A DNA stretch of 64,000 nucleotides, from positions 6,450 through 70,449 of the IMG/VR virus record IMGVR_UViG_3300032038_000065. One strand, given 5' to 3'. Below the pieces are notes generated by a model. The model saw only the letters and a list, made by a program, of their open reading frames with translations. It searched no databases and was not told the DNA's origin. A program made the translations under genes and the position numbers. The DNA comes from a virus. Taxonomy: Duplodnaviria > Caudoviricetes. Shown piece by piece: positions 1-50,291 of this stretch. Within the stretch, counting starts at the first letter, position 1. Every line of letters starts with the position of its first letter.

Positions 1-577
1 AAGGGATGCATTGCCCCAAGGCCGCAAAGAAGAGCATATCCGCCAGTCTATGGAAGGTATGGTAGATAATTTTAAAAGGAAGTATGAGAACTTTGAATAT
101 GGAAGCATCAATCTTTATACTGATGATTCTAAAAAAGATGAATTAGATAGAGAGATTTTTGCTGATATTACTCTTAATCATTTTCCTGCCCGCGAATTTA
201 ATGGATTATTAAATGGATTGACTGATGTATTAGGTAGTTATGAAAAGTTAAATAAGCGCAATAGAAAGAAAGATGAAGAGCATTTGAACAAACACGCAAT
301 GCACCTTATCCGCCTTTATCTTATGTGTCTTGATATTTTAGAGAAAGAAAAAGTAATTACCTATCGAGAAGATGACCGAGATTTTCTGCTTGAAATTAGA
401 AATGGTAAATATATGAATGAAGATGGGACTTATCAAAGTGAGTTTTTTGAAATGGTAAATGATTTTGAAAGACGCCTTGATTATGCTAAACAGAATACTA
501 GTTTACCAAAAGTCCCAGATTATCATGCTATTGAAGAATTTGTCATGGATGTAAATATGACGGCGGTAAGAATTTAA
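1..577 (+). CDS. 5'-truncated Pol-beta-like nucleotidyltransferase (RlaP/Nuc-transf-like), C-terminal part
   Basis: Frame is open from the window start (RDALPQGRKEEH...). KHAMHLIRLYLMCLDILE resembles the conserved helix of this family (recalled). Ends TAA, no TAG. Confidence 0.6.
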   Translation, partial: RDALPQGRKEEHIRQSMEGMVDNFKRKYENFEYGSINLYTDDSKKDELDREIFADITLNHFPAREFNGLLNGLTDVLGSYEKLNKRNRKKDEEHLNKHAMHLIRLYLMCLDILEKEKVITYREDDRDFLLEIRNGKYMNEDGTYQSEFFEMVNDFERRLDYAKQNTSLPKVPDYHAIEEFVMDVNMTAVRI

Positions 578-588
578 AAGATTGTTTG

Positions 589-617
589 TTGATTTTCTTA
601 AAAAATTATGATATAAT
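589..617 (+). promoter_or_regulatory. sigmaA/sigma70-type promoter
   Basis: TTGATT-17 nt-TATAAT, upstream of the ATG at 640. Confidence 0.8.
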
Positions 618-639
618 ATATATAGAAAGAAGATGAAAA

Positions 640-1308
640 ATGATTGGTATATATAAAATAACCAATATAATAAATGGAAGTGTTTATATTGGCCAGTCAA
701 AAGATATATATGCTCGATGGCAAAAACATAAATCTGTTTTTAAAAACGAAGCAAACCATAGGTATAAGCTATATCGAGCCATGAATAAATATGGTATTGA
801 CAATTTTTAGTTTGAAATTATTGAAGAATGTTCACCAGAAGATTTAAATAAAAAAGAACAATATTGGATTAAATATTATAATTCATATTATAATGGTTAT
901 AATATGACTTTTGGTGGAGATGGATTAAATGGAGCAAATAATAAAATTGTAATTCAATATGATTCTCATGGAAATTATATAACAAAATTTGAATCTGCAC
1001 ATGAGGCAGAAAGATAGACTGGAGTTACATTTACTAATATTTGTAAAGTATGTCGAGGAGAACGGCCCCACGCTGGAGGCTATATTTGGAGATATGAAGA
1101 CAGCAATATTCCAATAAAAGACTTAGGATAGGTATTAAAAAGGGGAAAACAAATTTTACAATATGATTTAAATATGAATTTAATTAATATATATCCTACA
1201 CGAGCTGCTGCTGCAAAAGCAATAGGAGTAAGTAAAACAACGATTGGAAATGCTTGTAGTGGGAAATTTAAAACAGCTGGTGGATTTATTTGGAAGGTTG
1301 AAGATTAA
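640..1308 (+). CDS. Free-standing GIY-YIG homing endonuclease with two NUMOD1-like repeats (222 aa, 3 in-frame TAG)
   Basis: MIGIYKITN...VYIGQS; two QYD...GG(Y/F)IW repeats. TAG at 808, 1015 and 1129; ends TAA. Missed by the ORF track. Confidence 0.85.
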
Positions 1309-1392
1309 TTAAATAATGCTAATTTTTTTCTAAGAAAGGAATGATAGTTATGTTGGATGCGGTGTTTTAATTACTTTTAAGGAGGAAATTAG

Positions 1393-1716
1393 ATGAGTAG
1401 ATCATACAAGCATACCCCTTATTGTGGAATAAAAAAGGATAGGTTTTATAAAAAGTATTTCAATAGAAAGCTGAGACGGAATAAAGATTATGATGAAGAT
1501 GATGAAAATCTTCAGTATAGCCAGTATAAGAAGAAAACTGACACTTGGAGCATTTGTGACTATGATGAAATTGGAACGACCAATTTTCAGAAATACTATG
1601 AGCGGCAACTGAGGTTGCATGAGGAATATAAGCAGCGGTTTTCTCATTTTAATGATCCACCTCCGACAAGAGAACAGTGTTGGAAGGAATGGAAACTTAC
1701 TTACTTTAGGAAATAA
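1393..1716 (+). CDS. Hypothetical phage protein (MSRSYKHTP...)
   Basis: GGAGG RBS, intact 107-aa ORF. Confidence 0.7.
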   Translation: MSRSYKHTPYCGIKKDRFYKKYFNRKLRRNKDYDEDDENLQYSQYKKKTDTWSICDYDEIGTTNFQKYYERQLRLHEEYKQRFSHFNDPPPTREQCWKEWKLTYFRK

Positions 1717-1720
1717 AATA

Positions 1721-1788
1721 TCGACACTTGCAGCAAATTTTCTTATTATAAAACTGAAAATTTTATTAAATAATCCATAAGGTGTCGA
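1721..1788 (+). ncRNA. RCAGCAAAT hairpin element, copy 1
   Basis: TCGACAC(1721) pairs with GTGTCGA(1782-1788); GCAGCAAAT follows the 5' arm after TT. Confidence 0.5.
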
Positions 1789-1849
1789 GCACAATAATAA
1801 CAGGAATAGCTCCATAAGATTTAAGAATTGGAGCGGAAAGAGGTTTATT

Positions 1850-2149
1850 ATGAAGATTCTTTATCAGAGTGAAATTACCGGAAAGACATATGAAACCAAG
1901 GAAGCTCTTGTTGAGGCGGAGGCCGCGGTATCTGCCGTTAAGAGAGCTGAGGAAGAAAAGAAGAAGGCAAGGGCGGAGGCCGCTAAGAAGGTAGAAGAAA
2001 AGTTAGCCATTGCTAACGCCGCAATTAAAGATGCTAATGACGCGCTTGCTGCATTCTGCAAGGAATTTGGTTCATTTAAGACAACCTTTAAGGGAGATAA
2101 TCTTAAGAATCCATTTTCTATTCTCTTCGATACTTTCTGGAATCTTTGA
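1850..2149 (+). CDS. Hypothetical coiled-coil protein
   Basis: GAGG RBS, 99 aa, Ala/Glu/Lys-rich, ends TGA. Confidence 0.7.
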   Translation: MKILYQSEITGKTYETKEALVEAEAAVSAVKRAEEEKKKARAEAAKKVEEKLAIANAAIKDANDALAAFCKEFGSFKTTFKGDNLKNPFSILFDTFWNL

Positions 2150-2183
2150 TGCGGGAGCGGGGGTTATAATCCCCCTTCCATCT

Positions 2184-2274
2184 GCCGCAATACCCAAGTT
2201 GGTGAAGGGGGCGGTTTGCTAAACCGCTAGTTCTATGATGAATAGGAGCGCAGGTTCGAGTCCTGCTTGCGGCG
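2184..2274 (+). tRNA. tRNA-Ser(GCT)
   Basis: Acceptor GCCGCAA/TTGCGGC; anticodon arm GCGGT-TTGCTAA-ACCGC; long variable arm; T arm GCAGG-TTCGAGT-CCTGC; G73. Confidence 0.92.
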
Positions 2275-2307
2275 TTAAATATTTTAAAATATAAGGAGAT
2301 TCTATTC

Positions 2308-2850
2308 ATGAATGAAGATTATATCCGCCTGAAGCTGTCGCCGCCTTGGGTGACTTTCGTTAATGAGATTGAAGCTATGTTTGGTAATGACCATGAAATC
2401 AATATTGTTTATGATAATGATGAAGTGGCAATTCGTCTTTATGTAGACAATGGCAAGAAGGCAGAAGCCATTTCTATGCTTCTTCCCGAAGAGAAGTGGT
2501 TTGGTAATGTGTGTCTTAAGGTAAGCGTGATTCCCGCAAATGACAAGGTGTTTGAAGGACTTGAGACTATTAATAATGACTCTGTCTTTTCTATTGCTTT
2601 TGAAAATAACCCCGTCTTTGCTTTTGTTAAGACTATCCGCACTCCTATTCTAAGTAATGATATTACTTATGTCGTGTTTAAGAATAAGGTTGTGCAGTTC
2701 TTTAATGATAATCTGAATGACATTCATGGTAATTGCAGCACCCTGTATGAAATCATTGCTAGAGATCTGTTTGAAGGCACGGTACTTCAGGGACTGTTCT
2801 ATTGCACGGATATTGAAGAAAAGGTTGGGGTAGTCACAAACTGGCCGTAA
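2308..2850 (+). CDS. Hypothetical phage protein
   Basis: AGGAGA RBS, intact 180-aa ORF, no TAG. Confidence 0.75.
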   Translation: MNEDYIRLKLSPPWVTFVNEIEAMFGNDHEINIVYDNDEVAIRLYVDNGKKAEAISMLLPEEKWFGNVCLKVSVIPANDKVFEGLETINNDSVFSIAFENNPVFAFVKTIRTPILSNDITYVVFKNKVVQFFNDNLNDIHGNCSTLYEIIARDLFEGTVLQGLFYCTDIEEKVGVVTNWP

Positions 2851-2860
2851 GATTCTCTTC

Positions 2861-2889
2861 TTGATTTTTTAAAAAAAATATGATATAAT
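2861..2889 (+). promoter_or_regulatory. sigmaA-type promoter for the hairpin/tRNA/HPr-like/DUF2828 cluster
   Basis: TTGATT-17 nt-TATAAT with TG near the -10 box. Confidence 0.8.
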
Positions 2890-2905
2890 ATATATGTAAG
2901 ATAAA

Positions 2906-3029
2906 GAGAGGCACACAGCAAATATTCTGTAAATTTAACGGATGGAAAAAGTCTCTCGCTATTAAAGGCACGTGCAGCAAATATTATATAGATAAAATTT
3001 GGTTTGATTTATTTTTTACTACGTGCCTT
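2906..3029 (+). ncRNA. Two tandem RCAGCAAAT hairpin elements (2906-2957 and 2965-3029)
   Basis: GAGAGGC/GTCTCTC and AAGGCACGT/ACGTGCCTT stems. (A/G)CAGCAAATATT lies at or within 2 nt of the end of each 5' arm. Confidence 0.55.
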
Positions 3030-3035
3030 GTTTTT

Positions 3036-3170
3036 GCAACTGTAACTCAGTAGGTAGAGTAACTGACTTTGGTTGTTTAGTTTAAGTAAAACATCAGAAA
3101 TGAAAATATAAGTGCAAATCTTATAACAATCTTAATCAGTAAGTCGCGAGTTCGAATCTCGCCAGTTGCA
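3036..3170 (+). tRNA. tRNA-Lys interrupted by a 62-nt insertion in the anticodon loop
   Basis: Acceptor GCAACTG/CAGTTGC + A73; D arm ACTC-AGTAGGTA-GAGT; anticodon stem ACTGA/TCAGT; T arm GCGAG-TTCGAAT-CTCGC. Removing 3071-3132 gives loop CT-TTT-AA. Confidence 0.85.
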
Positions 3171-3244
3171 TCTATGAGTGGTGATCATAGAGTCATGTGG
3201 TTTCTCAAGCGTTTGCGGGTATCGCTCCGAATAACCCGAGATAT

Positions 3245-3318
3245 GGCGGGTTCGTATACTAGCAGTACCACGGACTTTGACTCCGTTAGAGATGGGGCAG
3301 AACCATCACCCGCTGCCA
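3245..3318 (+). tRNA. tRNA-Gln(TTG) with atypical D and T loops, encoded CCA
   Basis: Acceptor GGCGGGT/ACCCGCT, G73, CCA; anticodon arm ACGGA-CTTTGAC-TCCGT; T arm GATGG-GGCAGAA-CCATC lacks TTC. Confidence 0.75.
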
Positions 3319-3353
3319 AACTTAACCTAAATATTGAAAGACAAGAGGAAGAA

Positions 3354-3575
3354 ATGAAGAAGTACAAAATTATTCTTGATACGGTTTCAGATGTCAATAA
3401 GTTTGTTTCCATAGCCAACTCCTTTGTGAATGCGGAGATCACTGTCACAGATAATCGTGGTCTCCGCGTGAATGCAAAGTCTTTGATGGGAATGCTTTAT
3501 GCTCTTGAATTTGAAGAACTTTGGTGCGAATCTGAATCTGAAATTTACGAAGCTATTAGAGATTACGTTATTTAA
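3354..3575 (+). CDS. HPr-like protein (Ser46 motif present, His15 absent)
   Basis: VNAKSLMGML matches the HPr Ser46 signature; RBS GAGG. The 5' extension in the ORF track overlaps tRNA-Gln and is rejected. Confidence 0.75.
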   Translation: MKKYKIILDTVSDVNKFVSIANSFVNAEITVTDNRGLRVNAKSLMGMLYALEFEELWCESESEIYEAIRDYVI

Positions 3576-3625
3576 ACATCAGGCTATGACAATAGCCGCA
3601 ATTAAGGATTGAAAAGGAGAAAAAA

Positions 3626-5137
3626 ATGAACACTTTCATGAATGCTCTTAAGCATGAAACTAACTTTACTTATACTGAAAATCATGCTCTTACTCGTTCT
3701 ACAACCGAGTCTGCGGTGTTGGATATGTTTGCACAGGCTGCCGCATATAGAAACCGTTCAGAGGAAGATTGTATTCTTCTCTTCAAGAATGCTCTTGACG
3801 AAGATAGAGATCTTGCAATGAAGTGTCTGTTCTGGGTACGTGACGTCAGAGGCGGCGCGGGCGAGAGGCGATTCTTTAGACTATGTTATAGATGGCTGTG
3901 TCAGAACTACCCTCAGACCGCACTCCAGAACCTTGAGTGGGTTCCTGAAATGGGTAGATGGGACGATCTGCTTTGTACTACTGTTGATACAGAAGTCGAG
4001 AAGGGCGCGCTGATGCTGATTAAATTGCAGCTTGAGCTGGATATGAGAAGCAAGACCCCTTCCTTGTGTGCAAAATGGGCTCCGTCCATTAACGCCTCAA
4101 GTCCAGTGACAAAGCGGTTTGCCATTAAGGTAATGAATTTCATGGGTATGACTGCCCGCGAATACCGCAAGATGCTGTCTGAGCTTAGAGGTAAAATTAA
4201 GGTACTTGAGAAGCTGATGAGCGCTGGCCGGTGGGACGACATCGAGTTTGATAAGATCCCCTCGCGAGCCGGACTCATATACAAGAATGTATTCGCTCAT
4301 AAGGAGGTAACTGCGGCGAGATATGAAGCATTCATCAAGAGCAAGTCTACTAAGGTGAATGCGGGAGTTCTTTATCCGTACGACATCGCTCACCGCATCT
4401 TTAATGATTATGCGCTTTCTCGAATGAGTCCCAATGATACAGATAGACTTGTTCTTAATAAATATTGGGAGAATATTCCCAATCTGTATGAGGGAAGAGA
4501 AGAGAATGCGATTGCTGTTGTCGATGTTTCTGGTTCTATGAACGGACAGCCTGTGGAAGTTGCAGTTTCTCTTGGTGCTTATGTAGCAGATAAAGCAAAG
4601 GGGCCTTTCGCTAATCACTTTATCACTTTCTCTGAAAAACCTAAACTTTGTAAGTTTGAAGGCGTAGATATTGTTGATAAGTTCATTCGATGCAAAAACG
4701 CGGAATGGGGTTATAATACAAATATCGAGGCTGTATTTGACCTTCTGCTGAAAACCGCAGTCCGAAATCATGTTAGACCCGAAGACGTAGTTCAGCGACT
4801 GTATGTTTTTTCGGATATGCAGTTTGATAATTGTGTCTGTTTTGGCCATACAGAGTATAATCTGTGGAGCAGACCTCATGCTACTGAAAGACAGATCAAA
4901 ACAGACCTTGAGAGAATCGCGCAGAAATGGCATGAGTATGGTTATGAGCTTCCGCAGGTTGTTTTCTGGAATCTGAATGCAAGAGATAATAACTGCATTC
5001 CAGCGCTTGGTGAGAGGTTCAGTTATGTAAGCGGTTTTTCGCCCAATATCCTGAGGCAGATCCTTACGGGGAAGAGTGGTTATGATTTGTGCCTTGAGGT
5101 TCTCCTTTCTGACAAATACAAATCTATTAGATTTTAA
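3626..5137 (+). CDS. DUF2828-like TROVE/vWA (Ro60-related) protein
   Basis: RDVRGGAGER and GRWDDLL motifs; vWA MIDAS VVDVSGSM; FSDMQFD; VFWNL. 503 aa, no TAG. Confidence 0.8.
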   Translation: MNTFMNALKHETNFTYTENHALTRSTTESAVLDMFAQAAAYRNRSEEDCILLFKNALDEDRDLAMKCLFWVRDVRGGAGERRFFRLCYRWLCQNYPQTALQNLEWVPEMGRWDDLLCTTVDTEVEKGALMLIKLQLELDMRSKTPSLCAKWAPSINASSPVTKRFAIKVMNFMGMTAREYRKMLSELRGKIKVLEKLMSAGRWDDIEFDKIPSRAGLIYKNVFAHKEVTAARYEAFIKSKSTKVNAGVLYPYDIAHRIFNDYALSRMSPNDTDRLVLNKYWENIPNLYEGREENAIAVVDVSGSMNGQPVEVAVSLGAYVADKAKGPFANHFITFSEKPKLCKFEGVDIVDKFIRCKNAEWGYNTNIEAVFDLLLKTAVRNHVRPEDVVQRLYVFSDMQFDNCVCFGHTEYNLWSRPHATERQIKTDLERIAQKWHEYGYELPQVVFWNLNARDNNCIPALGERFSYVSGFSPNILRQILTGKSGYDLCLEVLLSDKYKSIRF

Positions 5138-5235
5138 ATAATAGATATTAGAATCCTTGGGTAAGATAAGATATCTGCTCAAGGATATTTTTTATATTTA
5201 ATAAAAAAGAAAAAAATAAAAAGAAAGGTTGACCT

Positions 5236-6195
5236 ATGGCAAAATTAATTGATTTAACTGGACAACGATTTGATAAAGTAGTTGTATTATAGCAAGCGCC
5301 TTCGCGCGCTCGTCATGTTTATTGGAAGTGCAAATGTGATTGTGGAAACGAATGTTAGATTAGTGGAGACTCTTTAAGAAAGCCTCTTCGTCATCATGAT
5401 TGCGGATGTGTAAAACGCTAGCAAAAACAAATAAAACTTCAATAGGAAAAAGAAAGACAAAGAAAAATCCAAGAAAAACAAAATTGGTTAATAAATCAAC
5501 GTTTTGGAAAATTATTTGTTTTAGAAAAAACAGAAGAACGAATTAGTAATTCGGTTGTATGGAAATGTCAATGTGATTGCGGGAATATTAAATATGTTCC
5601 AACTCATTTATTAACATCTGGAGACACTCAAAGCTGTGGTTGCTTAATAAGGGAAGCTCATTGGAAAGATATTACAAATCAAAAATTTGGAAAATTAACT
5701 GCATTATATCCATTACCAAGAACAGAAAAGGGAGCTTTAATATGGCATTGTATATGCGATTGTGGGACTGAGTGCGATATAAATGGAAGTAATTTAAGAA
5801 GAAAACTTACGCAATCATGCGGTTGCCTCAGTGGATCTGTTGGCGAATAGAATATTAAAAATATTTTACAACAAAATAATATTAAATTTAAAAGAGAATT
5901 TACTTTTTCGGATTTACGAAATAGTAAAACAAATAAAGCTTATAGATTTGATTTTGCTATTTTTAATGATGACTTAACTTTGAAAAGATTAATTGAATTT
6001 GATGGATAGCAACATACCTTATCAAAAAGGGGTAGGAATTGGATGGATAAAGAATCATTAGAAGAGAGACAATTTAGAGATACAGAAAAAAATTAGTATT
6101 GTAAAAATCATAATATCCCACTCGTAAGAATCCCTTATACAGAGAGAAATGATATTACACTTGATATGCTATTAGGAGATCAATACTTAATTTAA
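5236..6195 (+). CDS. Free-standing homing-type endonuclease: three Cys-rich W-C-C-D-C-G repeats plus DUF559/Vsr-like nuclease domain (319 aa, 7 TAG)
   Basis: WKCKCDCGN/WKCQCDCGN/WHCICDCGT repeats; RFDFAIF...LIEFDG*QH. TAG at 5290, 5356, 5419, 5443, 5848, 6007 and 6094; ends TAA. Confidence 0.85.
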
Positions 6196-6237
6196 GATTC
6201 TGCTTTTAAAAGGCACAAGAAAATCAGATGGTAATAT

Positions 6238-6265
6238 AAAGGATGCTTAAAAGCATCCTTTTTTT
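6238..6265 (+). terminator. Rho-independent terminator
   Basis: AAAGGATGCT-TAAA-AGCATCCTTT followed by a T run. Confidence 0.75.
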
Positions 6266-6367
6266 CTTTTGGATTTGTATTGAGGATCTCTTGGATTGCT
6301 TGGCATGAAAAGGCTCGTATATAGGAAACCGAGAGGGGTCTAGGAATTTTTTAATCCAAAAATGCGG

Positions 6368-6410
6368 TTGGTCAAGTAACATTAAAATTCCCTTGATAAA
6401 TTTAATATAT
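6368..6410 (+). promoter_or_regulatory. Putative phage-specific (late) promoter TTGGNYAR-N25-TTTDATAT
   Basis: TTGGTCAA, 25 nt, TTTAATAT. Same spacing at 14839, 48824(-) and 62493. Confidence 0.5.
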
Positions 6411-6446
6411 AGTGAACAACGAAAATCCTTCAAGGAGGACTAATAA

Positions 6447-6929
6447 ATGTTAGAACTATTATCAAAATATTCAATTACTGAAATCTTAATCTTTATTGTC
6501 ATCTTAGCCCTGGCAATTAAAAGTACAATTTCCTTTTTTGATTGGGTACTAGATAAATTTCATAAAGCATCCAATAAAGAATATAAAAAGAAAATTAAAG
6601 AGACAGAAATTGAAAAACATTTAAGAGAAGAAAATGAATTAATTAAAGAATTACAATAGAAACAAAAGCTCACAGATAATACTTTAACTAATCTTTCACA
6701 GAAAATAGATGTACTTTTACGATCTGATAAGGACGCAATTAAAACTTATATTACTAAAGAACATCATTTCTTTTGCTACTGTCAAAAATGGATTGATGAT
6801 TTTAGTTTAGATTGTTTGGAGCGGCGATACTCTCGGTATCAAGAGTAGGGAGGTAACTCTTTTATAGCTGGGTTTATGAATGAGTTAAGACAGCTGCCGC
6901 GTCAACCAATCAATACAAATAATGATTAA
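6447..6929 (+). CDS. Holin-like membrane protein (160 aa, 2 TAG)
   Basis: N-terminal TM helix; C-terminal Y..YQE*GGNSF motif; TAG at 6657 and 6846; ends TAA. Confidence 0.65.
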
Positions 6930-6965
6930 ATAAATAATATCAAGAGATAAAAGGAGAATAGCGGT

Positions 6966-9900
6966 ATGGCTATACAAAATACAATGTATCCTCCTATTGT
7001 ACCAGATGCGCTACCCGCATTTATCCAAGGAGGATCATGTAATATACATTTTCAATTGTCTCCTGCAACTAATAACAATCAAATTAAAAATATTCAGGTA
7101 TCAATTGTAAATGCTAGAACAAATAAAACTATTTTAAAGGACGCTCCAAATGGAATTTATGTAGTTCCATGGAATGATAGTTATGTAAGACAATCAGATA
7201 CAAACAAATCCTTTCCATATTATATTACAATTAATTCTAATATAGTAAATTTTTAGGCTAATGAATTATATAAAATTCAGATGCGATTTGGGTCTGTTGC
7301 TGCACAAAGCATATATCCTTCTGCAACATGGTTTAATAATAATATAAATTCTTTTTCAGAATGGTCTTCTTCTTGTTTAATAAAACCTATTTATCAACCA
7401 AGAATAACTATTGCTGAATTTGATTTAGAGGATGCGAATGATAGCTCTAAAACAAAAGAGTTTGATTCTTTTTATGCAATATCTAATATTATTGGTGAGC
7501 TTATTTTTATTGATGGAAGCAATAATAAAATTAGTGAACAAACAGAGTATTTAAAAAGTTATAAAATAAAATTAGAAGAAAGTAAAAGCGGGATTGTTAC
7601 TACTGTACATGAAACAGATTGGCTATATCCTAATTCTTATACCCCAAATAATTTTAGTTATGCAGTTCCTTATTTATATAAAACTGATGGTAGCAAATAT
7701 AGAATTACAATATCTTATATAACAAATAATTTATATGAGAACAGTGACTATTTTATGTTTCAATTATCAGATTTTTCAATTTATTCAATTGATGCTTCTC
7801 TTGCAGTAGAAGAATAGCCTGAACGTGGTCGCATGAAAATTCAAATAATCGCAGATCAAAATAGTGATTATTTCTTTACTCCTGAATCACAATAGCCTGC
7901 CACCACTCTTATAATAAGAAGAACATCTTCTGAATCTAATTTTGAATTTTGGGAAGATGTTTATAAATTATAGAATTGTCCTACAACTGTAAGTAATAAT
8001 AATGGACAAAATACTATTGTATGGTATGATAATACAATAGAAAGTGGCATTTGGTATATATATGGAATGGCACGAGAAGATTCGCAGGGTCGCCGCGGCA
8101 CCATGAAAAAAGAGTCTGAGTCTGATGCTGAGAGAATGTGTTTATTTGAAGACATTTTTCTTACAACGGAAAATAAACAATTAAGGATTAAATTTAATCC
8201 TTCATTAAGCCAATTTAAATATAATGTAACATAGTCACAACAAGTAACCCTAGGTGGAAAATATCCATTTGTCAAAAGAAATGGAAATAATTATTTTAGA
8301 TCTTTTCCTATTGGTGGATTAATTAGCTCTTTTATTGATACAACAAATTGGCAACAGTCTTACGTTGATGAAGGAGAACATTCTAATTAGTTAAGTTCTA
8401 AATTATATGCTCCAAGTGAAAAGGATCAAAATAGTATATTTACAGTATCAAATAACGGTTTTAATAAAGAAAATGAATTAGCATTATTTACATCAAAAGA
8501 GGAAATTTATGGTGCGGCGGCCGCACCTCTTTACGCCAGCTATAATGAAGCACACAATATTGATTAGTATAATGATGTAATTTATGAGAGAGAATTTCGT
8601 GAAAAAGTATATTAGTTTTTATATGCTAATAATGTTAAATTATTTAAATCTGCAACCGAGGGCAATATATTGGTTAAAATAATGGATATTAATTTCCAAC
8701 CTATTGAATCTCTTGGGAGAAGATTATATTCTTTTACAGCAAACGCAGTAGAAATTGATTAGGCAAATGCAATCAATTATGCAAAATATCATATTTCAAA
8801 TAGTGCAACTTATACTGTCACTACAACTACTCCAGAATAGGGAGCAGAAATTCCTGATATTCCAGATACTCCTGATGATCCCGTTACACCTGATGGACCC
8901 TAGGTTAAAAAAGAAACTCTTTATAAAATGGGTCAATTTCAATTTTCATCTGATGATTATTTACCTAATACTAATATTATTTCAGAAATTAAAAATAAAT
9001 ATAATATAGAGATTGCTACGACATAGTAGAAAGAAGTTAATGGTGAAACAGTTACAATAGAAAACAAATAGTGGTATATACCTAAATCTGTTAAACATTT
9101 AACATTAACAATTACCTCGCCACCGCAGCTTATTACTCAAACATCTGATGGTAAACTCGCTTATATCTAGCATGGATCGGCAATTGCTTCAGGTTATATT
9201 GTTACAATAAAACACACCGCAGCAAATGATGAAACAGAAGAAGTTGAAGAATAGATTCTTATTCCACAGACTCAATCACATCTAGATACTCCTATTGGAT
9301 ATTATGATCTAGATTGTACGAATATTAACTTAGCATCATTATATTTTAAAGAGCCAGCTTCTTCATACTCCTTAATTGCTACTATTGATTATGTTATTTA
9401 GGTTGAATATGGTAAAAACGTTCCTAAAGAATAGGATTCAACTACACCTGAAAGTTCTACAAGAACAAGCTCTGAAATAAAATTAGGTCAAATATATGGG
9501 ACTTCAAATGTTGTAACTTCTATAATCAATCAAACAATACGAGATAAATATTATCAACTTAATAGGTCTCCTTATTTAAATATTGAATTTCAATAGGCAT
9601 GGGGATTCAGAATTGAAGCGCCTGTTGGTTCCGTTATTTATATTGCTTCTGGTACCACCGTTAATAATCAAATTTTAAGTAAACACATTTTAAATAATGG
9701 ATATTTAGAATTAACCGATGATGAAGGTGGAGATAACATAATAGTTAGTGGAATTTACTTTTATGGAAAATCATTTTATAAGCGAGAAATTAATTATATA
9801 ACAACAACAACAGGTTAGAATGGAGCTATAATATAGACTATTAATATTCCTCAGTTACAAGACAATGAATGTATTGAAGTAGATGGCACTTATGATTCAA

Positions 9901-10196
9901 TAAATGATATTACATAGCCTATTGATAATGGAGTTTATACATTAAATACTTCTTTTGGACTCTTTTCTGAACCAATTCCGTCTGGTAATCAAACTACTGT
10001 TTATAATAGAGCAGATGATTTATATTATACAGAATTATTAAAAATCAATCTTAGAACAATGTTTTTAAACACAATAATTTATTATCATGGCCAATGGTAT
10101 CCTTTTGATAATACTAACAATGAAATTATCTGTCCTCTTGATTATATTATTAACTATATTTGTAATATTAAAGAAACCAAGGAGGTTGGTATGTAA
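6966..10196 (+). CDS. Large virion/tail structural protein (1076 aa, about 22 TAG)
   Basis: Frame traced from ATG 6966 to TAA 10194 with only TAG interruptions. TLGGKYPFVKRNG and LFKSATEGNILVK motifs typical of gut-phage tail modules (recalled). Confidence 0.8.
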
Positions 10197-12178
10197 TGTA
10201 TAATTTTCCTTATTTAAATGATACCAGCTTCTTAAGAAGATTTGATAAAACTAAATTAAAATAGCAGTTAGTTAAAATTGTCGTTTTAAACTTTTCATAG
10301 CAACCAATACAAGAGATACAGGGTAAAGTAACGGGCGGCAGCCTGTCTTTAAATGGCGACTCCGCAATGCGAAGAACTTGTAGCTTGTCAATGGTTGCAG
10401 ATGTTGAAGAAAATAATTTAACTGATACTAAATATTTACTATCTATTAATAAAAAAATTGAAGTATTAGTTGGTTTTATAAATACAACAGGATAGTATCA
10501 AGATTATCCTGTATTATGGTTCCCGCAAGGAGTTTATTTAATTATTACACCAAATATTTCTTTAAGTAACAGTGGAATTAATATTTCTTTAACTTTACAT
10601 GATAAAATGGCGCTGCTTAATGGGGAATGCGGCGGCACTCTTCCCGCATCTATGATCTTACATGAAACAGAAGACATAGACGCATAGGGGAATACAATTA
10701 TTAAACAATTAACAATTAGACAAATTATTTCTTAGTTAGTACATCATTTTGGCGGCTAGCAATTAGGGAAAATCATTATTAATGATTTAGATGACCGCGC
10801 CAGAAAGGTTATGAAATGGACTGGTGACGCCCCCATTTATCATTGGAAAAATGGATAGTCTCATTTTCTATCAACTAATTATAATGAATATAGATCATTA
10901 GGATAGCCCACTCAATATGATTATGGAAGCAATATTGGATATATTTTAACAGATTTAGTTTATCCGGGAGAATTAATAAGTAAGCCCGGAGACACAATAG
11001 TGTCTATTTTAGATCAAATTAAAAATACTTTAGGTAATTATGAGTATTTTTATGATATAAATGGAAATTTTATTTTTCAATAGATAAAAAACTATTTAAA
11101 TAAATCTTATTCAACTTTTCAAATTAATTAGATGAATAGAGATAATTATTTAGTAGATTATACAAATGGAAAATCTGTTTATACTTTTGAGGATTCTGAA
11201 ATAATAACTGCGGTAAGCAACACCCCGCAATTTCAACAAATTAAAAATGACTTTGTTGTATGGGGCAAGAGAAAAACAATAAGTGGTACCGAGGTTCCCA
11301 TTCGTTATCATTTGGCTATTGATGACAAACCAACAATAAGATAGACATATGATGGATTTTATTATGTAGACCCAGACGATGAGATAACAAAAGTCAAAGC
11401 TCCTATCAAGGTTAATACCCTGCCCACAATTGGAATGAGTGGGGAATATTATTTGTGTAATAATAAGATTTCTTATTTTGAAGATGGTTAGTGGGTTGAT
11501 ACAGATTATGTTATGACTAAAATTCAATCGACGGATTTTAGAAGTGCTTTATATCTTGATGGTATGGAAAAAGAACCTTTGGGTTTAGAAAGCAATTATT
11601 ATTATGCAGAATTAAAAAATGAATGGCCTAAATTATATGATTTGAAGAGCGGTAGCTTTTATAGTTCAGTTTTACAAACATCTGACTCTATTGATTATTT
11701 TTTAGATTTTATCGATGCGGACGCCGCGCTTGCAGAGTTTAGCGTAAAAAATATAGGACGTAGAACTATGGTTATTTCAGATGATAAAATTAATTGTATT
11801 TTTGAACCTACTATGACAGATTTGGTTATAATAGAAGAGGGAACTAGTCAAACCACAGCATTAAGAACCGAATGTGAAAATAAAAGACAATAGTATGTGC
11901 AAGTAGACTCTGGAATTTATAATATGTTAGTTTAGGGCGGGACTGTACGATCCGCATATGAGCAAATTAAAAATGAATTATATCAATATACTTCATATAA
12001 TGAACAAGTTTCATTAACAGCATTGCCTATATATTATTTATAGCCAAATATACGAATAACTATTATAAATCCACAAACTGGAATTAATGGAGACTATATG
12101 ATAAAATCACTTACTTTACCTTTTGATATAAATAGTACAATGAATATTACTTGTATTAAGGCATTACAAAGATGGTGA
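10196..12178 (+). CDS. Baseplate hub/tail protein, DUF5048-like (660 aa, many TAG)
   Basis: TAATG overlap with the previous gene; DKMALLNGECGGTLPAS and FQ*IKNYLN motifs. ORF-track fragments 11132 and 11513 are in this frame; ends TGA. Confidence 0.75.
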
Positions 12179-12200: not shown

Positions 12201-12899
12201 ATGGCGAAGATTGGCCAATTAAGATTTGATTCTAATCTTGCGGCAGTTGGAGAAAATGGGTATGTATCGTAGTTAAGAGAAGATACTAATAGATAGTTTG
12301 TATTTAACTCAAGTTTAAATCAATACAATTGGAATTTTCTTAACAATGAAAATGATATGAATTTTAACATAGGAAATACATATCAAATAATTATTCAAAT
12401 GCCGCGAAGATAGATGCAAAATGGAGAAAATATTCCAGATATTTATGAGCTATTTATTGAAAACACTGAAAAAAATTTAACTTTAAAGATTGGGACAATA
12501 TCAATTTCTCCTAAAATAAATAACGAAGATAGTAATTATAAAAGCTATTCATTTTGCATTCAGCCAAAATATAATTTTAATAAAATATATATTCAAAGCA
12601 AATCAATAGCGCACTTAGGATTTGGGCATATTTTTGTTCAGGGGACAGATGGAAAAGCCATATGTTCAACATATACATTAAATAATATGATTAATGGGAA
12701 AAAACTTTCAAAATTAGGATTGCATAGCAACCAACAAATAAACTTTTGTGTAAATGGAGAGGCAATAACAACAGGAACAAATGGGCTTTATTAGTTTTCA
12801 CATAAACAAGTTCCTATTACTTTTGTTGGTTTTCCTATTGTTACGGGTTTTACACCGTACTTTGTTATGGATTATTAGTATTAGGAGGTGATTAATTAA
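12201..12899 (+). CDS. Baseplate-associated protein (232 aa, TAG readthrough)
   Basis: Contains fragment 12414-12794. C-terminus KLGLHS...NGEAITTGTNGLY*F resembles the 48445-48726 protein; ends TAA. Confidence 0.65.
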
Positions 12900-16214: not shown

Positions 16215-17498
16215 ATGGCTCAAAAAATTAATGCTATTAAAATTAAACAAGCTAATGGATCTTATACAGGAGAGATTCCTTTTGGAATCAATGCTGCAAA
16301 TGTTTTTTATCAAAAGCGTCCTTTAACTGGTGTTTTAGGCGATATTGACACTACAACTACATTGGCAGAGCAGTTTACCGCTCTTCAAGGGGAATGTGAA
16401 GCAATTAAGCACAGCACTGGAACGCCAATTGTTATTAAAGATATGGCAGAAAGAATAGACGAAGATAAAATTTATGTATATAATCCTGATACTCCTGATA
16501 CAGACAGTGGAAAATGGTATTATTATGATAAAGATACCTCTTCTTGGGCTGAAGGTGGACAGTATCAGTCTGCTTCTGTCACTGTCGATGCCACCCTTCA
16601 AGCACAAGACGTGCCCGCAGATGCAAAAGCAGTTGGAGATGCTATTAAGATAACAAAAAAAGAAACTATGCAAGCAATAGCAGATGAATATGATGCTACT
16701 AAAACATACTATCCTTTAGCTTATACTTTAAAAAATAATATTATATACAAAAATAAAAGCGATAGTTTAGTTACTGGAGCTTGGAATAGTGACAAATGGT
16801 AGCCCATTAACTCTTTAACCGAAGAAATAAACAATGAACATGCTGCAATTAGAGAATAGGCAAATACAATTTTAATGGCGACCTATGATGAAAATTCAAC
16901 AATTTAGTTTGTTGAGACAGAAGCAAATAAGAACTTTGCCTCTTTAGAAGTAAAAATTACTGATTCTTCAAAATTAACCGCTAGATCTGTTGCTATTACT
17001 CATACTGGTGCCAATAGTGAAAGTAATGTTATTACTATTAAGCTTCCCGCCACGGGAGATCTTACAAATAGTATAATTGATGTTGTTAACAGTACAATTA
17101 CATTAAATAATGGAACTACTGCGGCAGTAACGGTAACAAATAGTAATGGTCAATTACAACATTATCTTGGCTTAAATACTTTAACTCTTGTCCCCGCAAA
17201 TTGTGGAGTAATAATTTTTTCACACGATTTAAATATTGATGGACATTTAGCCGTTAATAATTATAAACTTGCTTCTTCTTTAATTAATGAAAATAATTTA
17301 ATGAGCGCTACTGCTTCTAAAGCCTATGCTGTAAATGATTATTTAATTATGAATAATATATTATATCGAGTAACAGCCCCTATTGCATCTGGTGAGTCTA
17401 TTGTAGAAAATACTAACGTTGTTACAACAACAGTTACAGAAGAATTAACTCGACTTGCTGAGATTTTAGATAATCTTTCTAATAATTCTAATCCGTAA
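16215..17498 (+). CDS. Tail fibre protein 1, MAQK module (427 aa, 3 TAG)
   Basis: Frame continuous across TAG to the 17301-17498 fragment; ADAKAVGDAI and KAYAVNDY fibre repeats. Confidence 0.75.
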
Positions 17499-17514
17499 TA
17501 AGGAGGGTTAATAT

Positions 17515-31090: not shown

Positions 31091-34000
31091 TTATCTTTTT
31101 AATGCTCTTTGCGCGGCGAGGCTCATGAGATCACTAAACGCGTCTTCAATTTCCTTCTTGGTATTAACATTCGGGAATGAAGCATTAATATGAACATTCT
31201 GTTCTATTAAATCAGCAGAATCATTAATCGGCCCTTTAAATCCACCATTTAATCCGCTAAGTTTTGAGTTAATACTACCGCCAAGCATTTGAACAATATT
31301 TCTTAAAATAGAAACACTATCTAACATATTTTTGGTATCAGAAGCATTTAACACAAGCTACTTTTGGTGTAACATTGCAACGCGGCCTTCGGGCCCCCAT
31401 GCGCCTGTGTATCCGCCAGTATCAAATGCACTTGTATTATATTGATGTCTACCATAGTGGGACGCCAATTCTAAAGGATCATATCTTTTTTTGTAATAAT
31501 CTGCATAACTAGTAGGCGGCTCAATTAAACGAATACGCCCTAAAGCCTGCATAACCTAATCATAAAATTTTGTAGATTTCTTTTTTGGTTGACCAAGGAA
31601 CTATTCAAACATTTGTTCTAGATATGATCTGCTTCTTCCATACGCCTAATAATAAGTAGACCAACTGCCTCCATAATAAATGTTTGCTGCGATTCCTTCG
31701 GCAAGAGAAATGTATTTGCTAAGGATCCCAGTTTGTATATCTTTTGTCGTATCTTTTTGTGATGGTCTCTTTGTATCACCAGATGCGGCGGGGGTATCTG
31801 TAGTTCCAGTTGCTGGTGAGGTTGCAGGAGGAGTCGCCGCAATTGGAGCGGGTTCAACATTCTGAGGCGCGGCTGGCAGCTGTCTATCTATTTGCGGAGG
31901 CGTTGGAGGTTCATACGCTTGATTAGCCTCAGCATAACCCGCCATTGCCTCTCTGTAAGCATCTAATGCCTATTGTGCTTTTGTTGCAGCATCTGATGCT
32001 TTTTGCCATACTTGATCATAAGATGATAATAATAAATCAACTTGCTTTTTTAAATTATCTACTGCCGGAATCTACTCTTCAAGAATTTTCTTAATTAGAT
32101 TGTCATTTTCTCCAATTAATAATTTAAAACTCTAAGTAGTAGGATCAATAGAACCAGTTCGTATTAATTCAAAGTCTGTGTTCGCGGCCTCCTACAAAGC
32201 CTTAATTTCAGCTTGATAATTATGAGTTGCTTCTACAATTTTATTAAAAGCCTATTCACAAGCAGGAACAAATCCTTCAGGACCCGCAAAGTAGTCTGCC
32301 ATCTAAACCAAGCCATTCCGCCACGTTGGGATTAGATCGCCTACAAACAGCTCCTTCTCCGCATCGTGCATATCTTTATATGCTTGATAATCGCCTTCAT
32401 ATAATGCTGCATACTCAATAAACGCGGAATCCATTAAATTAACTCTAAACTTCTTATTTTCTTCTGCTTTAAAGTTAATGTACTCACCATACTGTTCTCT
32501 TAATAAAGTAAGCTGTCTTACGCGCTCTTCTTCTGACAGCGAAGTATCTAATACAATTTCTTTATAGCGGTTTTGGAATTCTTTCCATGCAGAAAGCATA
32601 TCTTCCAAATTTTTCTGATAAGCATTTTTATCAAAGTTATAAAGTTCATTCTGTAATCTAGCAAGTTCATCTGCTCTATCTTCAACCTCATCCTCATCTG
32701 CACTATAAACATAAGAATAATTACCTTGTGCATCACGCTTTAATCTTAGAGATGTTTTTGAGTTGCGGGTTTCTTCAAGAGCCATTCTAGCTTGCTCAAT
32801 CTGCAATAGCTTCTCCGCCCTGTCAACGTCATATTGTGTTAGCTTATCTCTTGCCTTTAAATTATTTAATTGTTCATCCATTAAATTCTTTAAAGTTTTC
32901 TGATTTTTAACACTATCTGCTCCATCAATAGCCTTCTGATATTTAGATTGTAGCTCTTGTATAGCATACGCGGAATTAATTGTATCTAAATACTCATTAG
33001 CATTTTTATTAATTAATTCCCATTCCATCTAAATATAATCAGTACCAAGTCCGCCAGTAACCCGCTTATCAAGAGTATCAAAGATCTCATTAATTGCGGC
33101 GGTGTACTTATCTTGTAATGTTTTAACAGAAGTCTCAACTAAAGCATTAAGATCATTAACTAAATCTTTATACTGCTGTTTTAGCTTCTTCGCGGCTTCG
33201 GTATTACCCTATTTCTCCTAATACTACCACCGCTCCTTGACGAGATCTATCGCTTGCCGCAGCATATCTACCTATTGTAATTGATTTTGATGCTGCGAAG
33301 TATAGAAGGATTGCAATGCGGCATACTGTTTATCGCCATACAATAGCTGAAGTAAATCAGCTTGATGCTCAATTAAGCCATTAACAAACTAATAGTCATC
33401 AATCTGATCATCAATTTGGTCTTTAATATCATCATACATATCTAAATATGCTTGATGAACCGCATTGATTTGAGCTTTGACATCTGTCATAGACCCCTTA
33501 AGTTTGTCAAAATATTCTTCTAAAGCCTATTTAGCTTGAGCCATATTGGTTCCAAACCACTTAGACTCTCCGCCATTGTCAATAATCTCCATCTAACGGA
33601 GAATATCATTCACGTGTTGAGCTTGTTCAGCAAGCTGGCTATTCTCTCCGCCTTCAAAGTAGGTTTCAGCCTGTTTTCTAGCTAATCCCGCCTCACTCAA
33701 TAGGTTATCAAAGCTACTATTAATTAACGGATCAAGATCATCACTAATATCACGCAAGAATTTATTCCAGTCTCTGCGGGCTTCACCCATTTCAAGACGA
33801 ATATCTACCTACATGTTGAATCTTCTAATATTGAGTTCGATTTGCTGTTGTGCAATATCAGTTAAATCATCCCCAATATCTTCCATTTGAGACTCTAAGC
33901 TATCATATGCCTTAATAGCATTCTCAATCTATTTGTAATAATCATCCGCATCTTTAAGAGCTTTTTCAGAAAGTTCAAGCTATTTCTTAATACCTTCTTT

Positions 34001-37000
34001 TGTCTCTTTATCAGTTGTAGCATTATATCTTTCTACAATACCATTATATTGTGCGGTCAGACCATTAATAACACCCTGCTGATGCCCTAAAATATCAAAA
34101 TAGTTAGATATATGGCCGGCCTCATTGAATGTAGCTCCCATTAGCTTCAGGGCTTCACGCTGCTGAGCCAGGTCTTTTCTTTGTAACTCTAACTTCTATC
34201 TTAACCTAACCTTTTGCTTTTCAAGAATATCGGTTTGTTTATTAAGATTGTCAATTAACTATTTGCCATATAATTTATCTTGTTGCTTTTGAACTCGTTC
34301 AAGCTCTCTTGCAATATCAGATAGTTCAATATTTATGTCATGATAAATATCTCTGCTATCTTTCATTGATTTTTTAGGATCTTTTGTTGAGGTGTCTGGC
34401 TTTACTTCTTTTGTTTTAGCCTTGGCTTTTTCTGCCTACTCTGCTCTTCGTTTAGTACCTGCGGCGCCCGCACCTTGTGAAGAATGCTTCCATTTAATCT
34501 TACCACCAGATGCCTTACGTGCATTAAGAATCTTTAAACCAAATCCAGTTGCAGAGATCGTATCTTCATATTCAACTGGTTTCGCCTCAAATCTAACACT
34601 AGGAATTCTATAAGGAGTTCTTTCACCATTAACGGGGTTAAAACCATCTGGGATCTCAAGCACAGTAGCATTGGCTTCAAATCCAGTAACTGTTTTCTTA
34701 TCTTTCTATTTTCTTGTCTATTGAACAACTTCTGCATCAATACCAAAAGCAGAATGTAATAAATCAGACGCTTCCTATGCAGCTAAATCTAAATTATTAA
34801 TTAAATCCTAAAGTTGTGCGATAAAGTTTTCATCATTTAAATTAACACCAACTTCAAGCTCATGGAACTTTTGTTCTTCTAGAAGATCTAAAATGCCTTG
34901 GAATCTTGCAACATCTTCTGGGTCAAATTCAATATGAGAAATAATATCTTGTCTTGCGGCAGCCATTAATTCATCATAAGCATCAATATTACCATCGATC
35001 GCTGCTTTCATTAATTCAAGATTCTATGCACTTCTTAAGAATTCAGTAGATAAAGAAGAGCCTTCTAAGTCTAATAAATCAGCATAAGCGTCTCTTAATT
35101 CTGGAAGCCTTTCAGCGAGCTATTGAGTAGTAAGATTTTCATTCGTTAAAACCGCAATCCAATCTTCATAATTCTTAACAACATCTTCAATAGCATTATT
35201 AAATCTTAAAATTGCTTCTGCAACAGAATCTGCGGCACGGGCATCATTCTCTAAAGAATTAGCAAGCTAGTCAGATAACGGAGCCAGTTCTTGTAAAACA
35301 TCTTTTAAACTTTCAAGAGCCTAAGGTTTAATGTCAGAGTCCGTTGGGAACATGGCATCATACATTTGCTCATATTCTTCTTTGCGCAACTAAATTAACT
35401 ATTGAATTCTCTCAGCGGCGTTCTAGGTTTGGTCTCCTGCTTGAGCAATCAACTCGTCTATTCGTTTAACTGCTTCTTCTGAAATATTATGACTTTTTGT
35501 AAGATCCTACCATATTCTGATTTGTGCCTGAAGCTCTTCATTGCTATTATGAACCGCTTTTAAATACTCTAATTGATTTTGGACTACATCATAATTAACT
35601 AATGCTCCAGTTTTTGCTTCAGCTAATTTTTTCTCTGATAATCCTAATTCATCAGCATTTGCCCCATCAAGAATTTTAGAATAATCTCGATAATATAAAC
35701 TACTGCCACGTGATCCCTCTTGACGAGAAAGTGCATCATAATCAAAATTTTTCTATTGTATTCCTTGCAGTCTTTCTATTTCTCTATTAGTAGCATCAAT
35801 AGCATCAATAAAACCATTAATTTTTAAAGAGTTAACTTTATTATAAAACTCCTAAGCATCGCCCGTCATTTTATATTGGCCATTTGCCATCATAGTGAAA
35901 TATTTTTCAAGCTATGGAGCTAAAGGAAGAACTCTTTCTGTAAGCTATTTTTCAGAAATCTGTTTTCCGCCTCTTATTTGCTATTCTAAACTACTAAAAA
36001 TAGCATAGCTTGTAGCTGCCTGCTGTTGAACTTGTTCAGGAGATCCTCCATATAAAGAATCAAGATTTTCAAAGCTAATTTGAGATATTCTATTAAAAGT
36101 TCCTTCTAACTATTCCCAAACTGTTATATCAGTTAAATCTAATCGTGTTAAGAAATTAAATTGTTCATCATTTAAACTCTACAATGCTTTTAAAGCTTCT
36201 TTAGTTTGAGCTTTAATAGGCAACTATTCAAAGAATTTTAATTTTTCATTATATTGGTTATATAAATTATCATAATCTTGTTTTAAATAATTATCAACAG
36301 CTGCTGTTGCCTATTCATTAGAAATCCACATTGATCTTTTAAGTTCATTTATGGTATCTTCTCTAATTCGAATATAATCATTAATTCCTGTATTAGTATT
36401 AAGTTTATCTAAGGATGATGATTCATATATTTTCTGTTGGGTTTTAGAATTTCTTAATGACTATTGAATAGAACGTAAGTAATCTACTTCATCTTTCATC
36501 CCTTCAACCCAAGTTGAAATTTCATTATAATATGAAGATTTAGCTCTTTCACTGTCTGATAAAGCACGTATCTATTCTGAATTAAGTATAGCATTTAACT
36601 AATCATAAAGACGAACAATGGAATCTGCACTTTGGTTCCTATTAAAAGTGATAGTTTTATTATCAAAGAAATGTCCTATATTACTAGCACCGTTATCAAA
36701 GACACGTTCCTATTTGCCACCAATCTTTTTTAATGCATTAATTAATACTTCTGGCTCTGCGTAATTCCCTCCGTCAAATCCAGAACCAAATTCAAGCACA
36801 TAGCGGTTATCTCTAGTTGCAAATCCCTGCCCTGCACTCGCCGCAGCAACGACACTGTCTTTTGCTTTGGTTTGAGAAACTTCTAAAGAAGCAGCATTTT
36901 CTTTTTCTTTTTCAATTCTTGTCTGTCTAATTTTATCTGCTAGTCCCTAGTAATTTCCAATTAATTTTTCAATGCTACTAGATTCAATTCCATATTTCTA

Positions 37001-48899: not shown

Positions 48900-48928
48900 T
48901 TGAATTTTTTAAAAATTTTTGATATAAT
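48900..48928 (+). promoter_or_regulatory. sigmaA-type promoter
   Basis: TTGAAT-17 nt-TATAAT. Confidence 0.75.
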
Positions 48929-48959
48929 CTTTTTAGAAAAAAACAAAAGGAGAAAGAAA

Positions 48960-50262: not shown

Positions 50263-50291
50263 ATATATAGAAAAGATAAAGGAGAATCAAT

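Follow-up and report, generated by a model that had tools for sequence, protein, structure and literature searches.

A tRNA-shaped insert in the anticodon loop of a phage tRNA-Lys gene and its probable origin in a family of mobile introns

Within a 64,000-nucleotide (nt) stretch of phage DNA (the window; bases 6450–70449 of the 70,449-base-pair (bp) IMG/VR record IMGVR_UViG_3300032038_000065, here G000), a tRNA-Lys gene at 3036–3170 (+) is interrupted in its anticodon loop by a 62-nt insert that is itself shaped like a small tRNA. The ends of this inner tRNA shape coincide exactly with the ends of the insert (3071–3132), and introns of the same design interrupt tRNA genes of other phages, some of them carrying an open reading frame (ORF) for a GIY-YIG endonuclease. 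The insert is probably an ORF-less relic of these tRNA-shaped mobile introns, one that would be excised by RNase P together with an RNase Z-like cut, after which a ligase would seal the tRNA. Positions given below are those of the window unless prefixed by a locus (L001 is bases 1–10500 of the genome and L090 the locus of its relative G001).

The interrupted tRNA-Lys gene and its insert

The Rfam tRNA model (RF00005; cut-off 29 bits) matches 3036–3170 over model positions 1–71 with 60.8 bits (E 1e-10). Its alignment places 65 nt where the three anticodon bases are expected, leaving 62 extra nt in the anticodon loop. ARAGORN missed the gene with default settings and in intron mode called a tRNA-Lys with a 62-nt intron. 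An earlier note on this DNA had described a tRNA-Lys gene with a 62-nt insertion, and both programs bear this out. When the exons were joined in silico by removing 3071–3132, default ARAGORN returned tRNA-Lys(ttt). The parts of the gene are as follows.

3036–3070 (+), 5' exon of tRNA-Lys: acceptor 5' strand, D arm, anticodon stem 5' strand (3062–3066) and loop bases C32 U33 U34 U35 (Rfam alignment, ARAGORN intron mode, exon alignment with G001)
3071–3132 (+), 62-nt intron, an inner tRNA look-alike (Rfam tRNA 41.6 bits, homolog in G001, family table)
3071–3077 with 3125–3131 (+), acceptor-like stem of the insert, 7 bp, GGTTGTT / AACAATC
3078–3079 (+), U8 and A9 of the insert (Rfam tRNA model)
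3080–3092 (+), D-like hairpin of the insert, 4 bp (Rfam tRNA model)
3094–3103 (+), shortened anticodon arm of the insert, 3 bp and a GAAA loop (Rfam tRNA model)
3108–3124 (+), T-like arm of the insert, 5 bp and a 7-nt loop (ATAAG, loop TGCAAAT, CTTAT)
3132 (+), discriminator U of the insert, with no CCA after it (Rfam tRNA model)
3133–3170 (+), 3' exon of tRNA-Lys: U36 A37 A38, anticodon stem 3' strand (3136–3140), variable loop, T arm, acceptor 3' strand and discriminator A3170, with no encoded CCA (Rfam alignment, ARAGORN intron mode, exon alignment with G001)

Scanned by itself (3069–3134), the insert gave a match to the tRNA model that covers exactly 3071–3132 (E 2e-8, model positions 1–71). 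The paired ends GGTTGTT and AACAATC that the earlier note had reported are thus real, and they form the acceptor-like stem of this inner tRNA. The insert contains no ORF and ends in U rather than in a terminal G. It lacks a usable 7-nt anticodon loop, its anticodon arm consisting of 3 bp and a 4-nt loop, and is a tRNA mimic and not a decoding tRNA.

Three registers are possible, as had been noted before: removal of 3071–3132 or of 3070–3131 leaves the anticodon UUU, and removal of 3069–3130 leaves CUU. The ambiguity itself is settled by the tRNA shape, which places the insert at 3071–3132 with a predicted mature anticodon UUU. This register is favored because the tRNA model applied to the insert alone covers precisely this interval, because related tRNA-Lys genes of this body type that lack an insert all have the loop CTTTTAA, and because default ARAGORN reads Lys(ttt) once 3071–3132 is removed. 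The CUU register, which the earlier note had related to PrrC cleavage between nt 33 and 34, finds no support. The uninterrupted comparison genes come from 80 metagenome loci and six IMG/VR loci gathered through the neighboring DUF2828 protein; Lys tRNAs of the same body type in these loci are uninterrupted, all have the loop CTTTTAA, and those of loci L021 and L027 are closest to the joined exons. The predicted ligated junction reads ...GACTTT + TAATCAGT.... No second tRNA-Lys was found in G000 or in G001, and AAA is among the commonest codons (51 per 1000).

The insert had been judged too small for a group I intron and devoid of a ribozyme core and terminal G. In agreement, an Rfam search of 1500–4500 revealed no group I core (RF00028) and no known self-cleaving ribozyme at E≤1, and on the insert alone none of the hammerhead, twister, pistol, hatchet and HDV-like ribozymes (HDV, hepatitis delta virus) matched at E≤10, the theta type being covered through the HDV-type models. 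An HDV-like (theta ribozyme) topology was also fitted by hand and was rejected, as the order of helices does not match. When the insert was folded in search of a bulge-helix-bulge none was present; the predicted fold consists of the anticodon stem, an internal loop of about 4x4 and then the 7-bp stem.

A gapped pattern of both exon halves, run against IMG/VR, identified one relative, G001 (55,286 bp). Exact-match scans of viral contigs with either tRNA half returned nothing, nor did megablast against the phage collection. G001 is syntenic with G000 at 70–82% nucleotide identity and contains the same interrupted tRNA-Lys, the two aligning by blastn at 82% over 152 nt that cover the interrupted gene. 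Its intron (G001 17439–17502) scores 44.5 bits with the Rfam tRNA model, is followed by CCA, which extends this NCCA-type member to 17505, and was not called as a tRNA by ARAGORN. Between the two genomes the exon stems show four double compensatory changes (pairs 3-70, 4-69, 5-68 and 27-43) and no disruptive change. In the intron stems, pairs 1-72 and 2-71 alternate between G-C and G-U, and an A-U at the third pair of the mini anticodon stem is replaced by G-C; the introns are ~80% identical over aligned columns, with insertions and deletions. As the exon stem changes are all compensatory and none is disruptive, the split gene is under selection as a tRNA, and because a diverged relative keeps both exons and insert, the resemblance is not attributable to chance. 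The earlier note had held that a lack of conservation in relatives, together with detection of unspliced RNA alone, would mark a dead pseudogene; G001 retains the tRNA body and the insert alike.

The intron family, its boundary rule and its endonuclease-bearing forms

A scan for the T-like arm recovered 19 IMG/VR loci and three contigs from metagenome-assembled genomes (MAGs), labelled Eubacterium, Bacilli and Acutalibacteraceae. Family members were defined by a G at +1, a 7-bp paired stem, UA, a T-like arm abutting the 3' strand of that stem, a discriminator with or without CCA, and excision that leaves a 7-nt loop. The family has at least 13 distinct anticodon-loop introns; the 13 that were tabulated come from at least nine phage records. 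MAFFT alignments of the introns placed gaps inside stems, and base pairs were instead tabulated by position with a script. The insert at 3071–3132 has every one of these features, in the form without CCA.

The tabulated introns combine fixed ends with a covarying stem. Both G+1 and a pyrimidine at −1 occur in 13 of 13 introns, and the acceptor-stem cells are paired throughout (91/91) despite three to five pair types at each of positions 2–6. UA follows the stem in 12 of the 13, and the tail is NCCA in 11 and a single N in the remaining two, the G000 Lys and G001 Asn introns. The 5' motif TAGTTTAA(A)GTAAAA and the T arm are common to the insert and to Glu and Gly tRNA introns of other phages. 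A structural descriptor that includes the NCCA tail matched seven short introns in real sequence and had no hits once the sequence was reversed.

These features yield a simple boundary rule. Removal of everything from stem base 1 through the discriminator (and CCA, if present) rebuilds in 13 of 13 cases a 7-nt loop that contains U33 and A37, and the isotype after excision agrees with the tRNA body or with its relatives. The restored loops are Lys UUU (two), Ile UAU, Asn GUU (two), Gly UCC (five), Glu UUC (two) and Arg UCU (two). Default ARAGORN read the four excised genes of G000 and G001 as Lys ttt, Ile tat, Lys ttt and Asn gtt. The splice point in the outer tRNA lies at 34/35, 35/36 (as for the 3071–3132 insert) or 36/37 and always at the foot of the inner helix. 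Because the cut point thus varies in the exon and is fixed relative to the intron helix, the determinants of the splice site would lie in the intron.

The introns fall into two size classes, 58–158 nt without an ORF and 847–907 nt with one. The ORFs of the long class (247–261 amino acids (aa), with TAG read as Gln) encode GIY-YIG proteins (PF01541, 34–49 bits), and the noncoding RNA of these long members amounts to ~100 nt. The endonuclease ORF occupies the position of the inner anticodon arm and its stop codon lies within the T-like arm. In the Gly tRNA (847 and 158 nt) and in the Glu tRNA (132 and 95 nt), long and short forms share one insertion site, and short introns retain the last codons, that is, the 3' end, of the GIY-YIG ORF. 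The size series matches the decay expected of a homing element, and the 62-nt insert is an ORF-less derivative of a mobile, GIY-YIG-bearing intron family. The non-ribozyme character given to the insert in the earlier note stands, and what had been overlooked is its tRNA shape, with the register that this shape fixes at UUU, and its mobile family.

Other members were observed in the same genomes and on the MAG contigs. The tRNA array of G000 contains two further interrupted tRNAs, both upstream of the window. One of these, at L001:113-261, has a 75-nt intron (L001:148-222) with the stem GGGGGGT / GCCCTCC and the tail ACCA, which places it among the NCCA family members; after excision it reads as tRNA-Ile(UAU), the intron guess of ARAGORN having been Pro(tgg). 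A second member in G001 is a tRNA-Asn(GUU) at L090:7289-7420 with a CCA-less intron of 58 nt (L090:7325-7382), which ARAGORN miscalled as Lys(ctt). At positions matching the interrupted Ile and suppressor tRNAs of G000, G001 has uninterrupted Ile(tat) and Sup(cta) genes. The MAG contigs contribute an Arg UCU intron of ~880 nt (L120, Eubacterium), an Asn GUU intron of ~70 nt (L138, Acutalibacteraceae) and a Gly UCC intron of ~850 nt (L142, Bacilli); two of these three contigs are 148–158 kb and may be phage genomes. The labels hint at gut Firmicutes as hosts.

A candidate splicing route and its alternatives

In bacteria and their viruses, tRNA splicing is attributed solely to self-splicing group I introns. 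The inner tRNA suggests a different route. RNase P would cut the precursor 5' of G3071, and RNase Z or a similar tRNA 3'-end endonuclease would cut after U3132, releasing the mini-tRNA and leaving a nicked tRNA-Lys whose acceptor, D, T and anticodon stems keep it in one piece. At the nick, U35 would end in a 3'-OH and U36 would begin with a 5'-phosphate, and the break would be sealed, probably by the Naegleria-type nick-sealing RNA ligase of the phage, to give tRNA-Lys(UUU). Bacterial RNase P recognizes G+1, the 12-bp acceptor/T stack, the T loop and NCCA. RNase Z cuts after the discriminator of CCA-less tRNAs, and most RNase Z enzymes are blocked by CCA, the Thermotoga maritima enzyme, which cuts after CCA (A76), being an exception. 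The insert family presents G+1, the 12-bp stack, a T loop and the pyrimidine at −1 as sequence determinants for these enzymes, and the CCA-less Lys intron of G000 is compatible with an ordinary RNase Z. The Naegleria gruberi RNA ligase (NgrRnl) seals nicks with 3'-OH and 5'-PO4 ends, the same ends that RNase P and RNase Z leave. The genes that bear on this route and on its alternatives are the following.

48900–50198 (+), RNA ligase, candidate sealing enzyme: N-terminal OB domain and nucleotidyltransferase domain (Pfam PF09414, 65.6 bits; PF21189, 53.4 bits)
50549–51052 (+), P-loop kinase (AAA_33, Pfam), candidate 5'-end healing enzyme
51068–51604 (+), metallophosphoesterase (Pfam), candidate 3'-end healing enzyme
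2–577 (L001:5980-7026), RlaP nucleotidyltransferase, flanking the tRNA array
3626–5137, TROVE-vWA-like DUF2828/DUF7788 gene, 450 nt downstream of the tRNA-Lys

The nearest solved relative of the ligase is NgrRnl (5COT, E 2.7e-19), and G001 has an ortholog of it. We infer that the kinase would be needed only if the cuts leave a 5'-OH. No RtcB was found. A search for T4 Rnl1 (PF09511) gave no match in the five intron-bearing records G002–G006, a search that was equally silent in control genomes. The earlier note had proposed a protein-spliced intron served by the phage ligase set. That a repair set lies in the window and that the insert is not a ribozyme both hold, and an intron that depends on proteins is the favored interpretation; splicing itself, and with it the identity of the cutting and joining enzymes, is something that we infer.

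Several observations weigh against this route. A clear PF09414 ligase is present in three of seven intron-bearing records; in two more the match falls just short of the threshold, and in a further two, both near-complete, the sole ligase matches are weak ones of ~18 bits, to proteins of 452–458 aa with the same OB-plus-ligase layout. Members with an NCCA tail need a 3' cut after A76, which is untypical of RNase Z. The D-like and T-like loops of the insert are partly degenerate (AAGUA, UGCAAAU). Moreover, the CCA-less form of the structural descriptor performs at chance level (12 hits in real sequence and 12 in the null, or 101 versus 99 with long introns allowed), and because this descriptor alone is unspecific, the family membership of the insert rests on the homology with G001 and on the tRNA model score.

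Alternatively, the intron might be real and a dedicated phage or host endonuclease might cut it, leaving a 2',3'-cyclic phosphate and a 5'-OH that the kinase and phosphoesterase would heal and the ligase seal, as T4 does after PrrC; the tRNA shape would then serve stability or expression of the endonuclease gene. The complete heal-and-seal set does form one block (48900–51604), and the products of RNase P and RNase Z would need no healing enzymes. Eleven of 13 members would be cut after CCA, unlike what typical RNase Z does, and RlaP and the TROVE/vWA-like gene lie beside the tRNA array; both points also speak for this alternative. However, no candidate splicing endonuclease was identified, a bulge-helix-bulge is absent, and the splice sites follow the tRNA-like helix exactly with an invariant G+1, which is the geometry of RNase P. 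An embedded tRNA-like element of 41.6 bits would be hard to hide from RNase P, and the repair set is independently explained as a defense against anticodon nucleases. We regard this alternative as unlikely, yet as a serious competitor.

That the gene is dead, a homing-endonuclease cassette having entered the tRNA-Lys and then decayed so that no splicing takes place, is in our view quite unlikely. The ORF is gone from the G000 insert, as is the CCA tail seen in G001. Against such decay, the exons acquired four compensatory pairs and no disruptive change while neighboring DNA diverged by ~20–30%, the inner stem is paired with covariation in all 91 cells, every excised loop is canonical, and no second tRNA-Lys was found in either record.

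It is very unlikely that the 135-nt RNA has a function without being spliced, be it as a decoy that imitates tRNA-Lys for anticodon nucleases or as an RNA that partners the adjacent Ro60/TROVE-like protein. This idea draws on the nearby DUF2828/DUF7788 gene, on the RNAs with a closing stem and CAGCAAA immediately upstream (described below), on tRNA-like RNAs of relatives that carry a hairpin + CAGCAAU module, and on the CAGAAAT that follows a small hairpin in the insert. We tried the insert as an RNA of this module type and rejected it: CAGAAAT follows a 4-bp hairpin in the insert, but the orthologous G001 intron has CGGATGC instead, and the segment corresponds in the alignment to the 3' terminus of the endonuclease ORF that was lost. 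In the RNAs of relatives, the D arm lies on one side of the module and a separate, degenerate anticodon hairpin, which the module adjoins, on the other; the module is not within a perfect loop, which indicates that these are different RNAs. Nor would a decoy require an exact 7-nt loop from the exon halves. A decoy or nuclease-resistant tRNA had been the other suggestion of the earlier note, and it is disfavored, as excision restores the loop in 13 of 13 introns and the exons covary as in a working tRNA.

Finally, phages of this group have small ribozymes beside their tRNAs (theta ribozymes, PMC10879173) and the suppressor tRNA of this genome has a probable group I intron, but it is extremely improbable that the insert is an undescribed self-splicing or self-cleaving RNA, given that no ribozyme family matches at E≤1, that members shrink to 58 nt and are nearly all tRNA-like helix, and that they lack a terminal G and, apart from tRNA features, a conserved unpaired core.

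Genomic setting, known systems and significance

The record is estimated to be 45% complete and has a G+C content of 34.5%. TAG is a sense codon in this phage, as frames of up to 2,974 aa are open only when TAG is read through. A late-gene example at 31091–39994 (−) has a length of 2,967 aa and contains 80 in-frame TAGs, and early genes near the tRNA array, such as 3626–5137, have no in-frame TAG. The second interrupted tRNA upstream of the window is an amber-suppressor tRNA(CUA) at L001:5226-5512, with a 212-nt intron between U35 and A36. This intron matches the Rfam group I model with 26.6 bits (E 5.5e-5), below the cut-off of 50, and is a probable group I intron; in G001 the orthologous gene (G001 12385-12459) has no intron. 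In a TAG-recoded phage, a group I intron placed within the suppressor tRNA could act as a gate on the code switch.

Around the tRNA array are genes for a sigma factor, the RlaP nucleotidyltransferase, a GIY-YIG protein and the DUF2828/DUF7788 protein. An unannotated tRNA-Gln(UUG) at 3245–3315 (+), with the odd T loop GGCAGAA, escaped both ARAGORN and Rfam (E≤1); at minimum energy it folds into a perfect cloverleaf, and a tRNA-Gln(ttg) is called at the matching place in G001. Two further sets of features were recorded.

640–1308, 55050–55922 and 61148–62089, three free-standing GIY-YIG genes, the first and third with in-frame TAGs
1721–1788, 2906–2957, 2965–3029, L001:5633-5720 and L001:5725-5800, closing-stem elements (5–9 bp, 1–5 nt, CAGCAAA, AU-rich interior)

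The catalytic domain of the GIY-YIG protein at 640–1308 is 38% identical to the endonuclease of the long tRNA introns of other phages. A Cys-like anticodon hairpin and a T-like arm are present in one of the CAGCAAA elements. A permuted form (hairpin + CAGCAAU) occurs within tRNA-like bodies of relatives (L004:3529-3646, L008:3288-3407 and L090:17682-17805).

Arguably the closest published parallel is that of the Lak megaphages, whose tRNA introns were called "enigmatic", one of them possibly encoding a tRNA (Devoto et al. 2019, PMC6784885, Fig. 4, Table S6). Our literature searches turned up no explanation of such introns and no published counterpart other than these. Like the present family, the Lak introns are short, occupy the anticodon loop in TAG-recoded gut phages and have no Rfam ribozyme match, and the Tyr and Phe introns (Table S6, PMC6784885) end in an acceptor-like stem and a T arm with a GGTTCGA-type loop. 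By contrast, they have an extra 5' hairpin of ~26 nt before the mini-tRNA, so that the 5' splice site is not mini-tRNA +1, and PMC6784885 describes no endonuclease-bearing forms, boundary rule or mechanism. No sequence homology was found between the Lak introns and the present family. Theta ribozymes, which are tRNA-associated HDV-like ribozymes of recoded gut phages (PMC10879173), are a different device from tRNA-shaped introns.

Other systems share single aspects of the design. Group I introns, such as T4 td with I-TevI, are likewise mobile, have a peripheral GIY-YIG ORF that can be lost and can occupy an anticodon loop; however, the insert lacks a P3–P9 core, a terminal G and an Rfam match, and its conserved RNA is a tRNA mimic and not a ribozyme. 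The tRNA introns of archaea and eukaryotes, which depend on a bulge-helix-bulge, an endonuclease and RtcB or Trl1, are also short, lie in the anticodon loop and are protein-dependent and ligase-rejoined, as we suppose for the insert. The insert differs in having no 3-nt bulges flanking a 4-bp helix and in its position at 35/36 rather than 37/38, and the splice sites of its family are fixed to the intron and variable in the exon; neither EndA nor RtcB homologs were found, RtcB being the one of the two for which a search was made. In mitochondrial tRNA punctuation and in MALAT1 mascRNA an embedded tRNA shape marks cuts by RNase P and RNase Z, by analogy with what may happen here. Their flanks are not rejoined, whereas here the flanks are tRNA halves that need ligation, and the likeness would be one of mechanism and not of kinship.

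Likewise, T4 Pnk and Rnl1 form a phage kinase/phosphatase and ligase pair that acts on a broken tRNA-Lys anticodon loop, that cleaved by PrrC. They mend damage at 33/34 of a mature tRNA, whereas a planned excision at 35/36 is proposed here, with a ligase of the NgrRnl/DraRnl type. The T4 SegB protein illustrates that GIY-YIG endonucleases can be tied to phage tRNA genes, and free-standing GIY-YIG genes also occur in the window, but SegB is intergenic, while the ORF of the intron family lies inside an RNA scaffold inside a tRNA, both of which are intact.

Taken together, the locus links the phage tRNA introns that were called "enigmatic" in 2019 to a family with a clear tRNA-in-tRNA design, with or without a GIY-YIG gene, and a simple boundary rule predicts the mature anticodon in every case. 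Introns that mimic tRNA, are cut by the universal tRNA end-processing enzymes and are resealed by a ligase may represent a third, previously undescribed route of tRNA splicing, a generalization that we offer tentatively. An in vitro test of the mechanism would require RNase P, RNase Z and an RNA ligase, three enzymes in all. Because standard tRNA finders miss such genes, the tRNA repertoires of recoded gut and rumen phages are underestimated, those used to judge codon reassignment among them. A small, protein-excised cassette of this kind could also serve as a tool in RNA processing. If the proposal is correct, the 62-nt insert would be a near-minimal natural substrate and the family would exemplify a new way for homing endonuclease genes to inhabit essential RNA genes.

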